Positions 58,317 to 64,000 of a stretch of DNA of 64,000 nt are shown here, in pieces. Positions within the stretch are counted from its first letter, which is position 1; each line of letters opens with the position of its first letter. Under the pieces are notes generated by a model. That model had not been told where the DNA came from and ran no database searches. It worked only from the letters and a program-made list of their open reading frames with translations. This stretch comes from Acidobacteriota bacterium. GTDB taxonomy: Bacteria > Acidobacteriota > UBA6911. Position numbers and translations under genes: made by a program. The DNA lies in contig OY761556.1 in NCBI GenBank assembly GCA_963664705.1, forward strand, positions 3,136,001-3,200,000, read 5' to 3'.

Positions 58317-61300
58317 TTATGCCTCGAGCGCGAGATGGCGCACTTCCGATCGCCATTTCCAGAGGTAATAGATGGCCGGATAAACGAGCAATTCCATCAG
58401 GAAAGATGTAGCAAGACCGCCAACCATAGGAGCTACCACGCGTTTCATCATGTCCGAACCAGTTCCGATGGACCACATGATCGGCATCAACCCCATGAAC
58501 GCTGCCGCGACCGTCATCATCTTCGGCCGGACTCGCTTCACAGCCCCGTGAATAACGGCTTCAACCAGGTCCGATTTACTTTTAAGCTCCCCCTTGCGCC
58601 TGGCTTCTTCATACGACAGATCCAGGAACAGCAGCATGAACACGCCCGTTTCCGCATCGAGCCCCATCAGAGCGATCATGCCGACCCACGCCGCAATGGA
58701 GATGTTATAGCCGAGAATCCACATCAGCCACAGTGCCCCGATGAGGGAAAATGGGACCGCGAGCATCACGATCGACGCTTTCATCGCCGACTTCGTGTTC
58801 ATATACAACAGCGCAAAGATCAGAAAGAGGGTAATGGGGACTACGATCTTGAGCCGCTCGCGCACGCGGAGCATGTTCTCATATTGCCCGCTCCAAACGA
58901 GCGAATAGCCGGCCGGGATTGCGAGCTTTTCGCGCACAACCTGCTTGGCCCGTTCAACGTATCCTCCGATGTCCTTGGACGCCAGGTCGATGAAAACATA
59001 GCCTGCAAGCATGCCGTTTTCATCGCGGATCATGGAAGGTCCGCTGACACGCTTGATCTCGGCAATTTCCGAAATGGGAATCTGAGCTCCGCCCGGAATT
59101 GGAACCAGCACCTGCCGCAGCCGTTCCATATTGTCCCGCAACTCGCGCGGATAGCGAACGTTCACGGGGTAGCGGGCACGCCCCTCAATTGTCGTGGTGA
59201 CATTCTCGCCGCCAATGGCGGAGGTAACCACATTCTGGGCATCGGCCACAGACAGTCCGTACCGCGCCAGCTGGTCGCGCTTTAAGGTAAAATCGACAAA
59301 ATATCCACCCGCAACGCGTTCAGCATAAACCGATCGCGTCCCGGGCACATTTCTCATGATCGACTCCAGGCTGGAGCCAATCTTCTCGATCTCAGCGAGA
59401 TCCGAACCGAATATCTTAATTCCTATGGGCGTTCGGACTCCCGTGGTCAGCATGTCGATTCGAGCGCGAATCGGCATTGTCCACGCATTGGTGACGCCCG
59501 GTATCTGAACCGTGGTATCCAACTCCGAAATGAGTTCATCCCATGAAATCCTGTCAGGCCAGATACGCCGGAATACAAGATTCTTCAGCCATTCCGGAGA
59601 CCACCGCGAATACCATTGGTCTTTATGTCGCCACTCCGAAACTGGTTTGAGGAGAATGGTGGTTTCCATCATTGAAAAGGGCGCGGGATCGGTCGAGGTT
59701 TCCGCACGGCCCGCCTTTCCAAATACCCTTTCCACCTCGGGAATGCGCATGATCAAGCGGTCCTGCACCTGCAATACGCGCTGGGCCTCAGACACGGATA
59801 TGCCGGGCAGAGTGGTGGGCATGTACAGAATCGTCCCCTCATTCAGCGGAGGCATGAATTCGCTTCCCAACTGGAAATAAACCGGAATCGTGACCAGGAC
59901 CAGGAGAAGAGCGACGACGATAGTTGTTTTCGGGTGTCGGAGCACAAATCGAGCCGGAGGATCATAAATCCTGAACAGGATTCTGCTGATCGGATGTTTC
60001 TCTTCTTTGTAGTATTTGCCCACCAGCACCTGATTCACCACCCACGCAACAGGTTTTGGACGGAAGCGAAAATAGTCCATCCGCGCAAACAGCATGCGCA
60101 TGGCCGGATCCAGAGTCACGGCCAGGATGGCCGCAATGGCCATCGCAAAATTTTTGGTAAATGCCAGTGGCTTGAAAAGCCGCCCCTCCTGATCCACCAG
60201 GGTGAAGATTGGAAGGAACGCGATGGCAATCACGAGGAGTGAGAAGAACACCGAAGGCCCTACCTCTTTGAGTGCCTCCAGGCGGATTTCGTGAAAATCG
60301 CCCTGCCTTCCCCCCTCGACCCAAAGCTCCAGCTTCTTATATGCGTTCTCGACTTCAACAATGGCGCCATCAACAAGGACGCCGATGGAAATGGCAATCC
60401 CGGCTAAAGACATGATGTTGGAATTGAGTCCCAGCATATACATCGGAATGAAAGACAGCAGCACGGAGACAGGGATGGTAACAATCGGAATCAATGCCGA
60501 AGGAATATGCCAAAGAAATATCAGGATAACGAGGCTTACAATAACGATTTCTACGATGAGTTCATGCTTTAGCGTATCGATGGATCGTTCGATTAATTCC
60601 GACCGATCGTAGGTGGGAATGGCCTTTACTCCATGCGGAAAAGATGGCTCCAGTTCCCTCAGCCGTTCCTTGACTCGCGCGATGACCTTATCTGCATTTT
60701 CACTATGGCGCATCACCACGATGCCGCCAACGACATCGCCGATCCCATCCAGATCTGCGACTCCCCGGCGAATCTCGGGACCTCGCTCAATACGCGCGAC
60801 ATCTCTCAACAGGACTGGCGTGCCGGCATTGTTTGTTTTTAGAACGACCTGTTCGAGATCCCGTTCTGACTTGACATAGCCGTGGCCGCGAACCATGTAT
60901 TCGCGTCCGGAAAATTCGATCAGCCTCCCACCGCTTTCCTGGTTCGCATTGCGAACAGCCTCGCTGACCTCCATGATAGGAATGCTGTAGGCTTTCAGTT
61001 TATCCGGATCGACCACCACCTGATACTGATTCTGAAATCCTCCGACCGTGGCCACCTCCGCAACCCCCGGGACAGACTGCAGCGCATACCGCAGGTTCCA
61101 ATCCTGGTAGGAGCGAAGTTCTGCAAGGCTGTGCGTACCGCTTTTGTCGACCAGCGCATACTGGTAGATCCACCCCACACCGGTTGCATCGGGCCCGATC
61201 TCAGTTTTTACCTCCGGCGGTAGCGACGAGATTACTTTGCTGAGATACTCCAGCACTCGGCTTCGCGCCCAATATATGTCGGTACCATCTTCAAAAATGA

Positions 61301-61580
61301 TGTAGACGTAAGAAAACCCGAAATCGGAATAGCCGCGGATCGCCTTGACTTTTGGAGCACCCAGCAGCGCAGTGGTGATCGGGTAGGTTACCTGGTCTTC
61401 GATAATGTCCGGAGATCGGTCCCAGCGGGAATAGACAATGACCTGCGTATCGGAAAGATCAGGGATCGCGTCAACAGGCTGGTTATAAAGCGTCCAGATT
61501 CCAACCGCAACAGCCGCGGCTGCAAATACAAGAACGACAAATTTCTGCCGGGCGCACCACTCAATAATTCTTTCGATCAT
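58317..61580 (-). CDS. cusA: Cu/Ag RND efflux permease
   Basis: DAIPDLSDTQVI, GPDATGVGW, GSEFMPPLNEG.ILYMP, FSMMET, RVRPKMMT. Confidence 0.93.
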   Translation of the reverse strand: MIERIIEWCARQKFVVLVFAAAAVAVGIWTLYNQPVDAIPDLSDTQVIVYSRWDRSPDIIEDQVTYPITTALLGAPKVKAIRGYSDFGFSYVYIIFEDGTDIYWARSRVLEYLSKVISSLPPEVKTEIGPDATGVGWIYQYALVDKSGTHSLAELRSYQDWNLRYALQSVPGVAEVATVGGFQNQYQVVVDPDKLKAYSIPIMEVSEAVRNANQESGGRLIEFSGREYMVRGHGYVKSERDLEQVVLKTNNAGTPVLLRDVARIERGPEIRRGVADLDGIGDVVGGIVVMRHSENADKVIARVKERLRELEPSFPHGVKAIPTYDRSELIERSIDTLKHELIVEIVIVSLVILIFLWHIPSALIPIVTIPVSVLLSFIPMYMLGLNSNIMSLAGIAISIGVLVDGAIVEVENAYKKLELWVEGGRQGDFHEIRLEALKEVGPSVFFSLLVIAIAFLPIFTLVDQEGRLFKPLAFTKNFAMAIAAILAVTLDPAMRMLFARMDYFRFRPKPVAWVVNQVLVGKYYKEEKHPISRILFRIYDPPARFVLRHPKTTIVVALLLVLVTIPVYFQLGSEFMPPLNEGTILYMPTTLPGISVSEAQRVLQVQDRLIMRIPEVERVFGKAGRAETSTDPAPFSMMETTILLKPVSEWRHKDQWYSRWSPEWLKNLVFRRIWPDRISWDELISELDTTVQIPGVTNAWTMPIRARIDMLTTGVRTPIGIKIFGSDLAEIEKIGSSLESIMRNVPGTRSVYAERVAGGYFVDFTLKRDQLARYGLSVADAQNVVTSAIGGENVTTTIEGRARYPVNVRYPRELRDNMERLRQVLVPIPGGAQIPISEIAEIKRVSGPSMIRDENGMLAGYVFIDLASKDIGGYVERAKQVVREKLAIPAGYSLVWSGQYENMLRVRERLKIVVPITLFLIFALLYMNTKSAMKASIVMLAVPFSLIGALWLMWILGYNISIAAWVGMIALMGLDAETGVFMLLFLDLSYEEARRKGELKSKSDLVEAVIHGAVKRVRPKMMTVAAAFMGLMPIMWSIGTGSDMMKRVVAPMVGGLATSFLMELLVYPAIYYLWKWRSEVRHLALEA

Positions 61581-61608
61581 AGTCTGGATTGGATGGAATA
61601 CCGGGACA

Positions 61609-62901
61609 CTAGCTTCCGGCCGATACCGCCGCCTTCAGCTTTGATTCGGAATCCAGAAGAAAGCTTGCCCCAGTCACAACCTTTTCGCCTTCCGCAATGC
61701 CCTGCTTGACTTCATACATGTTGCGAACGCGCGCTCCAAGCACAACTTCGCGCGGTTCAAATTCCCCTTCTCCCTTCGCGACAAAGACAATATACCGCTC
61801 TCCGGTAGCAATGACGGCGCTGTCCGGAATCGCAATTCCGGTCGCCCTGGCTCCCCCAAGAACAATATGGACATACATCTCCGGCTTCAGTTCGCCATCC
61901 GGGTTTGCAAATTCGAGGCGTGCCTTCACGGTTCGCGTCACCGGATCCACCGTGGGATCCATGAAACTTACGCGTCCTCGCCAAGTCCTTCCTGGCTTGT
62001 AATCCAAGGTCATGGCCGCAGGTTGCCCGATTCGCACAAAAGGAAGATTGACTTCGTAAATGTCCGCAAGGACCCACACTGTGGACAGGTCGACAATATC
62101 GTACAGGTTATCGGCGGGCGTCACTTTCAGCCCATGCACTGCAAGCTTGCCCGTCACATAGCCCGAAACCGGGGATGAGATGACCAGATCACGCGACGCC
62201 TTTCGTGTCTGCTCAAGGTCGTTCAGTTCCGCATCGCCAATTCCCCAAAGCGCAAGCCGCTCTCGCGCGGCCGCTACCAGATCAATGGAGCTTCCCGGAG
62301 CAACGGATTTTGCACCGGTCGGGTCTCTCTGATCGCGAGCCCGAAGAGCCAATAGATACTCGTTCTGCGTCGCATAAAGATCCGGAGAATATACGCTGAA
62401 CAGGGGTTGCCCCGCCTTCACATATTGTCCCGTATAATTCACAAACAAATGCTCAATATACCCGTCGAATCTCGTATGCACGTGATGCACTCTGGTTTCG
62501 TCGTAGGCAACCTTTCCAAATGTGCGAAAACTCTGATCCAACTCAACCCGGGAGGCTTCCGTGACGGTGATCCCCATAGTCTGAATCCGCTCAGGCGAAA
62601 TAGTCACAGGAGCATATCCGGAAACTCCGGACGATGCAGTGGTTCCCTGAGCTGCATCCGGCATATTGGCGTGAGCGCCATGTGCCTCAGACGCACCTGG
62701 CTGATCTATCGGGACAAGCTTCATTCCACAGATAGGACAATCGCCGGGCTTGTCGGAAATATAGGTGGGATGCATGGGGCAGTGATACATCACTTTGGGG
62801 GCTGCCGTGGTTGCGGCATTCCCCCTCCAGTGCATATAGGCAAAATAGCCACCGGCGCACAAAACAGCCGCCAGCAAAAAACCCAATATGAAATTCTTCA
62901 T
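61609..62901 (-). CDS. cusB: RND periplasmic adaptor, CusB-like, with heavy-metal-binding domain
   Basis: YHCPMHP...PGDCPICGMKL, YSPDL, LKPEMY, FLLDSES. Confidence 0.9.
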   Translation of the reverse strand: MKNFILGFLLAAVLCAGGYFAYMHWRGNAATTAAPKVMYHCPMHPTYISDKPGDCPICGMKLVPIDQPGASEAHGAHANMPDAAQGTTASSGVSGYAPVTISPERIQTMGITVTEASRVELDQSFRTFGKVAYDETRVHHVHTRFDGYIEHLFVNYTGQYVKAGQPLFSVYSPDLYATQNEYLLALRARDQRDPTGAKSVAPGSSIDLVAAARERLALWGIGDAELNDLEQTRKASRDLVISSPVSGYVTGKLAVHGLKVTPADNLYDIVDLSTVWVLADIYEVNLPFVRIGQPAAMTLDYKPGRTWRGRVSFMDPTVDPVTRTVKARLEFANPDGELKPEMYVHIVLGGARATGIAIPDSAVIATGERYIVFVAKGEGEFEPREVVLGARVRNMYEVKQGIAEGEKVVTGASFLLDSESKLKAAVSAGS

Positions 62902-62928
62902 AAATCCTGATCCGAGCGAGTCCGGGAA

Positions 62929-63390
62929 TTAGGGGACCAACTCGCCGCAAGTCAGCATGGAACTGCCGTAATAGGGATTACGCGTCCCCTTGTCCGGTTG
63001 CAGCCAGTTTTTCTTCACCATCGAACAATAGTACTGGTACGGAGGATTTTTGGGTGTACTGGATGCTTTCACAAAGGCAATCATCTTGTCGCTGAGATCA
63101 CCGAATGCCCCACGCGCAGATTTCAGATCGGTCGAGTTAAATTTGGCGGCCGCCTCGGCGAGTGCTTGCAGTTCGGCCTTTCCTGCCTGCTGCGTCGCGG
63201 AGGCCTGTTTGCTGACCTTGGCCAACTCTGCAGCAGCGGCAGCTACTCCCGTAACGGAGTCAGAAGCCAGGCTTTTTTGGATTGTGTAGTACGGGCCGAG
63301 TATCTGGCCGGTTATGGAAGCGACGGGACTCGCCATCGCGATACCGAGGATGGCAACGCCAAGAACACAAAATAGCGTAATCGATCTCAT
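62929..63390 (-). CDS. DUF3347-like periplasmic metal-binding protein
   Basis: Signal peptide; YCSM...WLQ....RNPYYGSSMLTCG. Confidence 0.82.
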   Translation of the reverse strand: MRSITLFCVLGVAILGIAMASPVASITGQILGPYYTIQKSLASDSVTGVAAAAAELAKVSKQASATQQAGKAELQALAEAAAKFNSTDLKSARGAFGDLSDKMIAFVKASSTPKNPPYQYYCSMVKKNWLQPDKGTRNPYYGSSMLTCGELVP

Positions 63391-63562
63391 CAAAACTCCT
63401 CCTGATAGCATGGTTCAACCATTGCCTTTATAATGGAAATCCTGACCCAACAAGAATATAGCGCGCAACGCAACTAGACAACATTTCCTTTTCAAATCGT
63501 ATTCGCGACAATTTCGCAGCCGCCCACCTACCACATTGTGGCATATTTTCTAAGATTTTATG

Positions 63563-63592
63563 TTGACATTCGAAAATGCAAATGTCTACAAT
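63563..63592 (+). promoter_or_regulatory. Sigma70 promoter of the cysK leader
   Basis: TTGACA (63563-63568), 18 bp spacer, TACAAT (63587-63592); expected start about 63599-63600. Confidence 0.7.
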
Positions 63593-63599
63593 CACACCC

Positions 63600-63704
63600 A
63601 TGAGTTCATATCGCATAAGCAGAATGGAAATGGGGACCGGTTCCGGATGCTGTTGTAGCCTGCCGGCTGCCCGCTTTGCGGCATGGGCTCGAAACGCCTC
63701 TTAG
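63600..63704 (+). CDS. Putative Cys-rich leader peptide (34 aa)
   Basis: MSSYRISRMEMGTGSGCCCSLPAARFAAWARNAS; TGC-TGT-TGT at 63648-63656; directly upstream of cysK. Confidence 0.6.
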   Translation: MSSYRISRMEMGTGSGCCCSLPAARFAAWARNAS

Positions 63705-63822
63705 CCACAAAGCGTGCCGGTCGGCACATCCTCCTATACAGGCAGATCTCAAACAGTGATTCGTCCCATTCATGGGACACAGCACAACCCAGTTATTCAG
63801 CTATCAAACGAACGGAGAGGCT

Positions 63823-64000
63823 ATGGCACGCATTTACGAAGACAATTCACTATCGATAGGCAACACACCCCTTGTCCGATTCAACCGCATCGCCGCAGGA
63901 TTGCCGGCAACAGTGTTAGGAAAGATAGAGGGGCGGAACCCGTCCTATTCCGTCAAATGCCGGATCGGATCGGCACTGATCTGGGATGCGGAAAGCAAAG
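63823..64000 (+). CDS. cysK: Cysteine synthase A (3' truncated by the window)
   Basis: [18 protein letters not shown]...[16 protein letters not shown] (PLP-lysine motif); RBS GGAGAGG; absent from the ORF track. Confidence 0.93.

Follow-up and report, generated by a model that had tools for sequence, protein, structure and literature searches.

A leaderless-type short open reading frame with consecutive cysteine codons, followed at a fixed distance by a strong hairpin, lies upstream of cysK in a bacterium of the phylum Acidobacteriota. Fifteen distinct copies of this leader element were found: three in the source genome (G000), six in five relatives of one family and six on metagenome contigs, with pairwise identities of 47-89%. 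The element is real and conserved, and it is very probably a cysteine-sensing ribosome attenuator. With modest confidence, folding predictions favor hairpin-gated occlusion of the downstream start as its best mechanism.

The window is the whole 64,000-nt stretch that was analyzed (G000:C1:3136001-3200000). Its phylum is read from the label Acidobacteriota on a protein (P0004) identical to the cysK product of the congener G009. The cysK leader at its 3' end has the following parts.

63563..63568, + strand: -35 hexamer TTGACA, read from the window sequence
63587..63592, + strand: -10 hexamer TACAAT, 7 nt 5' of the ATG of the leader ORF (uORF); the transcription start is placed by promoter spacing
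63600..63704, + strand: leader ORF of 34 codons, leaderless-type, with its stop near the hairpin apex
63648..63656, + strand: Cys-Cys-Cys sensor codons TGC TGT TGT, codons 17-19
63662..63693, + strand: 5' arm of the switch hairpin, starting GCCGGC 5 nt past the last Cys codon
63694..63725, + strand: C-rich 3' arm of the hairpin, ending GTCGGC; predicted anti-start strand once freed
63696..63702, + strand: GCCUCUU, predicted partner of GAGAGGC at 63815-63821 when the 5' arm is melted (p 0.46)
63712..63719, + strand: GCGUGCCG, predicted partner of UGGCACGC at 63824-63831 (cysK codons 1-3) when the uORF is occupied (p 0.98)
63729..63735, + strand: pyrimidine tract directly 3' of the hairpin, anti-SD-like or part of a Rho loading site
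63814..63819, + strand: cysK Shine-Dalgarno (SD) sequence GGAGAG, -6.6 kcal/mol with the 16S 3' end
63823..64000, + strand: start of cysK (322 aa), which continues beyond the window; cysE is next

All of the anatomy in the original prediction is borne out at the positions given. The promoter that it called near-consensus matches 11 of 12 consensus positions, with 18 nt between the hexamers. Promoter-like sites near the leader number 2, against 1.2 +/- 1.0 in shuffles, so that the promoter alone is weak evidence. The ATG at 63600 was said to lack an SD sequence, and the 13 nt upstream of it indeed give +1.0 kcal/mol, that is no pairing, with the 16S 3' end. Also as described, the 34-aa frame contains three consecutive Cys codons, and its TAG stop codon (63702-63704) lies 118 nt before the cysK ATG. 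Both proposed anti-SD tracts, GCCUCU (63696-63701) and CCUCCU (63730-63735), are present. The long hairpin that it foresaw spans 63662-63725 with a folding energy of -34.8 kcal/mol (z -3.5), and the whole-leader fold of the window copy has a z of -1.9.

No known RNA or protein family accounts for the leader in the searches made. An Rfam scan of window positions 63300-64000 gave one chance-level match only (18 bits, with 48.6 required), a scan of the three-gene region gave no leader match and only a downstream SAM riboswitch, and a Pfam search with the 34-codon leader peptide returned no family. Zero intrinsic terminators were found in the window region. Downstream of the leader, cysK (scoring above the TIGR01139 cut-off) and cysE both exceed NCBIfam cut-offs, and the order continues with the SAM riboswitch and a cystathionine gamma-synthase-like gene. 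That S-box riboswitch (L001:2600-2725, 77 bits) follows cysE, has its own promoter-like site and precedes the cystathionine gamma-synthase-like gene. On the other side, the - strand genes at 58317-63411 of the window, divergent from cysK, encode a DUF3347 protein, a CusB-like membrane-fusion protein with a heavy-metal-binding domain and an AcrB-family efflux pump, and are likely a copper/silver efflux operon.

A survey of the family identified 28 cysK copies in 26 of 51 genomes, five of which are preceded by the leader. These five are in G000, G007, G002, G009 and G034, the last of which belongs to another genus. A promoter scan of G000 revealed two further copies, one before metY and one before the operon cysG-cysH-cysD-cysN-sbp-cysT, which includes sulfate-transport genes. 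Covariance models added a copy in G013, upstream of DUF2325, DUF2292 and a PhsA-like gene, and a second copy in G009, upstream of a ferredoxin-like ORF. Metagenomes contributed nine matches among 80 cysK loci kept of 133 confirmed, and after removal of three duplicates these yielded the six metagenomic copies. Overall, the downstream gene is cysK in 11 copies, and single copies precede metY, the cysG operon, DUF2325-DUF2292-PhsA-like and the ferredoxin-like ORF of unclear role. DUF2325, DUF2292 and the ferredoxin-like ORF are probable sulfur genes.

Searching G000 from the peptide side leads to the same loci. Its intergenic short ORFs with a Cys-Cys run comprise 36 entries, of which four are promoter-proximal and three of these four precede sulfur genes. 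The fourth (G000:C1:5001141, + strand; L155:11087-11167) is divergent from the metY/Rrf2 region and precedes a gene for a secreted-looking protein; the GCCGRC hairpin was not seen there.

Wider searches gave no copy outside the family among the candidates examined. A class-wide model scan of 116 genomes, in which part of the candidates were scored, gave strong matches only in six genomes of the family itself. Weak matches in five other genomes were rejected, four being antisense to a gene and one lacking a Cys run. Scanning the genus at E values up to 1 gave 21 weak matches beyond the known copies and no new member. In a phylum-wide pattern scan, 50 of 401 genomes have a match, and the 30 loci examined include no promoter-linked start outside the family. 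A loose pattern applied to all genome contigs found at least 120 loci; model scanning of 100 of them gave two weak matches, and none of these loci had a promoter-linked start. Altogether, 115 motif matches were examined and such a start occurs in the nine known genomic copies only. Pattern matches within the family in G066, G068, G072, G021 and G010 were discarded as lying inside genes.

Two further loci resemble the element in part. About 130 nt upstream of cysK in L007, inspection by eye shows a promoter, a GTG-started short ORF with a single Cys codon and a GC hairpin; this ORF, which was not counted, may be a decayed copy. L289, at a contig end (G009:C189) with the upstream sequence missing, has a GCCGGC hairpin and the same pyrimidine tract as the G009 copy, with no visible Cys run.

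The copies share a consistent promoter layout of TTGAC, 17-18 nt, a -10 box, 6-10 nt and an ATG without an SD sequence. TTGAC is present in 14 of 15, the fifteenth being interrupted by a contig end, and the SD-free ATG follows the -10 box by 6-10 nt in all 15, with start sites placed from promoter spacing. Across the genome, ATGs located 6-9 nt after -10 boxes are barely commoner than those at other offsets (6-8 of 324 per offset). A second cysK of G000 (C1:364188-365153, - strand; L034) appears by eye to have an ATG about 7 nt after a TTGAC-N18-TAAAYA-like promoter and no SD sequence, and the same arrangement is seen by eye in L013, L190, L194, L195 and L201. This second cysK is apparently translated leaderless. 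Leaderless initiation in the genus is supported because its ATG abuts promoter-like sequence without an SD in G000 and L013.

The sensor codons and the hairpin are similarly constant. Every copy has at least two (two or three) consecutive in-frame Cys codons, the last two of which are always TGT TGT, an identity partly imposed by the search motif. The last Cys codon falls at codon 16, 17, 18, 19 or 21, in frame with the promoter-proximal ATG, so that length changes are whole codons. As the original prediction had asked of related cysK leaders, the Cys run is kept, and with it the frame, promoter spacing and hairpin in all 15 copies. All 15 copies have the hairpin, GCCGRC...RYCGGC, at a distance of 5 nt from the last Cys codon, a spacing that was part of the extraction motif. 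The stop codon lies within the hairpin, 40 nt from its start in eight of the first 14 copies. Hairpin energies range from -20 to -37 kcal/mol, and the mean z of -3.3 (below -1.64 in 14 of 15) is inflated because the hairpin ends were chosen by motif; several pair types occur per position in the single folds. Covariation in the outer stem is weak (two of eight pairs change on both sides, and 29 of 500 shuffles reach the score) because the base is nearly invariant. In most copies a pyrimidine tract follows the hairpin at a fixed position, whereas the start codon lies 76 to 370 nt away, depending on the copy.

Other candidate features were set aside. Intrinsic terminators are missing from 13 of 15 copies, the exceptions being metY, where one follows a second leader ORF, and G034, which has one weak candidate. 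An intrinsic terminator was rejected as the output of the element. Considered as a general terminator type, the hairpin-plus-tract motif has 43 matches in G000, most of which seem by eye to be chance pairings. The peptides have nothing in common beyond the Cys run, a few codons at the N terminus and those residues that the hairpin base imposes, and the peptide was therefore rejected as a conserved product. A tiny hairpin formed by the Cys codons themselves (four pairs, 3-nt loop) is too weak to build on.

In the proposed mechanism, translation of the uORF would begin at the ATG next to the promoter. A shortage of charged tRNA-Cys would hold the ribosome at the first or second Cys codon (Cys1 or Cys2), immediately 5' of the hairpin, so that the hairpin would remain closed and its C-rich 3' arm would be kept off the cysK start. 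With ample cysteine, the ribosome would instead continue across the 5' arm and reach the stop codon, which lies near the hairpin apex. This would release the 3' arm, which together with the pyrimidine tract would pair with cysK codons 1-3 and the SD sequence and so prevent initiation; cysE would be repressed along with cysK by polarity. Such a switch would have the classical trp-type geometry, in which stalling favors the helix just downstream, with ribosome-binding-site occlusion as its output and not a terminator.

For folding predictions, the ribosome was modeled as a hard mask in equilibrium folding, with its usual footprint of 8 nt beyond the A-site codon. With the mask at Cys1 or Cys2, the hairpin base has a p of at least 0.95 in 14 of 15 copies; with the uORF occupied, it is lost in all 15. 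Stalling at the last Cys codon (Cys3) disrupts the hairpin base in the model, so the direction of the switch depends on footprint length. In the window copy, opening the SD sequence is predicted to cost 5.3-5.9 kcal/mol in three stalled states, 8.2 with the ORF occupied, 9.9 with the ribosome at the stop codon and 11.2 in free RNA. The stalled states thus have the most open SD of all.

The match between hairpins and their own genes provides a second line of evidence. A swap control with 14 copies (metY was left out) compared own and foreign downstream parts for the rise in SD opening cost on melting. Matched combinations rise by 1.20 kcal/mol versus 0.36 for mismatched ones (p 0.006; 0.058, 0.023 and 0.0003 in three other settings), although the copies are kin, so that these and the following p values overstate the significance. 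For 11 of 15 copies, one or more of the predicted melted folds place the freed 3' arm on the start codon or on codons 1-3, through sequences that differ by copy; some of these helices are only 3-4 bp long. In direct tests the 3' arm pairs better with its own start region than with those of others in nine of nine variants (p 0.0002-0.025), using an arm segment selected partly post hoc, after the folds had been inspected. Controls with the 5' arm and uORF pass in one of 18 pairing tests. Removal of two close kin leaves p values of 0.005 and 0.016, and the fit stems from about half the copies.

Other predictions fit hairpin-gated occlusion less well. Helices between the arm and the start are absent from the predicted folds of L180, L183, L186 and the second G009 copy. 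The tract is predicted to lie on the SD sequence even when the ribosome is stalled in G002, G009, G013 and L184, with several copies showing this in every state, and only six of 15 copies gain more than 1 kcal/mol in SD opening cost on melting. The first pairing tests were negative for the tract against the SD (p 0.51), the arm end plus tract (p 0.32) and the inner 3' part (p 0.46), and other ribosome masks gave no consistent switch in SD opening among the results listed. Against control starts, the tract has a 6-bp match to its SD in eight of 15 copies (z -2.5, with the tract placed by hand for G034 and the second G009 copy); tract:SD covariation alone is not significant. Hairpins of -20 to -37 kcal/mol are far stronger than the helix between arm and start and should re-form once ribosomes leave, a prediction that counts against the model. 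The distance from hairpin to start (76-370 nt) also requires a long reach at metY and cysG.

Cysteine leaders of a different type occur close to the element. Behind the leaderless copy in the metY 5' region (L155:9833-10007, - strand), a second ORF, of 35 codons and with an SD sequence, contains Cys-Cys-Cys and precedes a long hairpin and a terminator with a U tail, and metY is accordingly predicted from its sequence to be preceded by two cysteine attenuators in tandem. In L178, about 180 nt upstream of a cysK at position 1501, there is a different Cys leader with a TCCC run, a competing hairpin and an intrinsic terminator. This cysK is 83% identical and its leader is a terminator-type counterpart of the element. 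In both the second metY leader and L178, a long hairpin forms around the stop codon in the nascent, stalled fold, and its base takes part of the 5' strand of the terminator; in full-length folds the terminator still wins. These models suggest, short of proof, that the closed hairpin is the on state of the element.

Termination by Rho is the leading alternative, in itself rather unlikely, for the output of the same sensor working in the same direction. Once melted, the hairpin would offer Rho a loading site in its C-rich 3' arm and in the tract. The 5' arm has a C/G ratio of 0.72, whereas the ratio reaches 1.56 in the 3' arm and 2.86 over the 20 nt that follow the hairpin, and the C-minus-G excess is in the top 10% of control leader windows for nine of 15 copies over 20 nt and 10 of 15 over 45 nt. 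However, a C-rich strand is equally expected of an anti-SD strand, and the C excess of the window copy is unremarkable (P 0.12 and 0.22). The constant position of the tract despite start codon distances of 76-370 nt would suit Rho, as would the failure to find an intrinsic terminator in 13 of 15 copies. G000 also encodes two Rho proteins above the TIGR00767 cut-off, from full-length genes at C1:643143-644378 (-) and C1:3893937-3895178 (+). Precedents exist in the Rho mechanism suggested for actinobacterial cys leaders in the accessible part of PMC1262725, and in the comparable Rho logic of Salmonella mgtL/mgtA and corL/corA, as far as the available text of PMC12360218 describes it. Against this, melting is predicted to add few unpaired C residues to the nascent RNA (11.3 compared with 9.4 before) and does not lengthen the longest single-stranded run, and the fit of the 3' arm to its own start region is left unexplained. 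Start occlusion and Rho output can coexist because blocked translation invites polarity.

Distinctly unlikely as the shared mechanism is the one put forward by the original prediction, in which, as in mycobacterial Ms5788A, the Cys codons pair with the cysK SD and start and a stalled ribosome covers them. In the window copy the proposed pairing of UGUAGCCU (63654-63661) with AGGCUAUG (63818-63825) is found in the minimum-energy fold. The helix 63651-63661:63818-63828 has p 0.97 in free RNA, and SD opening costs 11.2 kcal/mol there versus 5.9 with a stall on Cys3. G034 has an 8-bp Watson-Crick match between the Cys segment and the SD region. These two helices are strong (-13.8 kcal/mol in the window copy, -16.0 in G034), whereas the other 12 of 14 copies have energies of -3.6 to -10.3, including -7.8 in the closest relative, L176. 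Being strong in just two of 14 copies, the Cys:SD helix is not a shared mechanism, and matched and mismatched combinations do not differ (p 0.52). By helix length the Cys segment somewhat prefers its own SD region over control starts (z -2.3), yet by energy the mean percentile against 600 control starts is 0.49, and the swap test in this direction gives p 0.11. The UGU UGU of the last two Cys codons in every copy hints at nucleotide constraint, but the invariant hairpin base and fixed 5-nt spacing would go unexplained. Perhaps the Cys:SD helix of the window copy serves as an extra lock on ribosome-free RNA, a role that its predicted fold would allow. Of the ribosome-stalling switch foreseen for a new phylum, then, the leaderless-type poly-Cys uORF as cysteine sensor is supported and the Cys-codon:SD helix as family mechanism is not; translational output is the best-supported reading of the models.

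It is highly improbable that the uORF and hairpin are real and do not sense cysteine through stalling, for instance because they stabilize the 5' end or bind a protein, while cysteine control is exerted by a repressor of the Rrf2 type acting on the promoter. In favor of this reading, an Rrf2 gene lies directly upstream of the metY copy (G000:C1:5000423-5000824, - strand), and the leader is dispensable, given its presence before only five of 28 family cysK copies. Against it, the Cys run keeps its frame in all five length classes and is associated with sulfur genes, at three loci in G000 alone, and only the nine known genomic copies among the 115 motif matches have a promoter-linked start. Repressors may act at some of these loci. 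By eye, an inverted repeat ATCTA-N9-TAGAT overlaps the -35 box of the metY copy, a possible repressor site layered on the attenuator, and similar CTAT...ATAG repeats overlap the L184 and L007 promoters. Genes for cysK that do not have the leaderless element lie directly behind an Rrf2 gene in L011, L023 and L027 (Pfam-confirmed), and L017 looks alike by eye. At such copies repressor control may replace the attenuator.

The broader picture that hairpin-gated occlusion of the start would complete is plausible and offered tentatively. The element would be a portable, homologous cysteine-sensing module that has been copied before sulfur operons, with its 3' arm re-tuned to the start codons of each gene. 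It would combine trp-type geometry with a translational output, define a cysteine 'ribulon' in this Acidobacteriota family and stand in tandem with a terminator-type Cys attenuator at metY. In the literature found, as far as the accessible texts go, leader-peptide cysteine control is shown experimentally only in mycobacteria and its mechanism is resolved for one locus. The principle is thus already known, and the lineage range found here is narrow. Cysteine leader-peptide control would nevertheless extend to another phylum with a different switch design, and the three homologous copies in G000 would represent a regulon built by copying of an RNA module rather than by a transcription factor. 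Fifteen natural variants with a fixed distance from stall to hairpin are also ready tests of how a stalled ribosome sets an RNA fold.

The trpL and hisL leaders are the classical leader-peptide transcription attenuators. Like them, the element has regulatory codons followed by a helix that is formed, here by prediction, only under a stalled ribosome. Another example is uORFC-8-2, which precedes cysS in Rhodobacterales and has tandem Cys codons (PMC8632094, accessible portion). The element differs from trpL, hisL and, to the extent that this source describes it, uORFC-8-2 in having no U-tailed terminator in 13 of 15 copies, a leaderless-type start and a predicted ribosome-binding-site output.

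Rho-dependent attenuators controlled by uORFs, namely mgtL/mgtA, corL/corA and tnaC, are covered in the available sections of a review (PMC12360218). In these systems, as is predicted for the element, full translation of the uORF brings about an off refold; a C-rich stretch past the stop codon and the lack of an intrinsic terminator are also shared. The signal in the element is instead its Cys codons, and the predicted exposure of C residues is small. The element is not described in the accessible parts of PMC13236596, PMC2965389, PMC4833913 or PMC11109978. The literature searched on cysteine leaders contains no report of it or of Acidobacteriota cysteine attenuators, and an entry in a comparative-genomics table is possible.

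Actinobacterial cys/cbs leader peptides without terminators were described by Seliverstov et al. (2005, PMC1262725). From the accessible text, they share with the element a Cys-run ORF before cys operons, the lack of an intrinsic terminator and a pyrimidine-rich stretch, and Rho was suggested to act there. Their polyY motifs are given as non-conserved and no conserved hairpin able to act as a terminator is reported in that text. In the element, by contrast, no part is better conserved than the hairpin, and the Cys run lies away from the stop codon.

The closest counterparts are the mycobacterial polycysteine leaderless sORF attenuators of the 'Cys ribulon' (Canestrari et al., bioRxiv 10.1101/834739), which in the accessible portion of that report include Ms5788A and Rv2334A, the latter before cysK1-cysE and listed also in the available text of PMC13096801. 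Both systems place a short ORF of leaderless type, with Cys codons in a row, before several sulfur operons per genome, cysK-cysE among them, and have a probable translational output with polarity. In Ms5788A, as far as it is described there, the ORF finishes with its Cys tract, and this tract is the strand that pairs with the SD, an interaction that is strong among 14 copies of the element only in the window copy and G034. The element instead carries its Cys run in mid-ORF and has a separate conserved hairpin at fixed spacing, whose 3' arm is the predicted anti-SD strand. Whereas the mycobacterial loci are, by the same partial account (bioRxiv 10.1101/834739), mostly independently evolved, copies of the element are homologous to one another.
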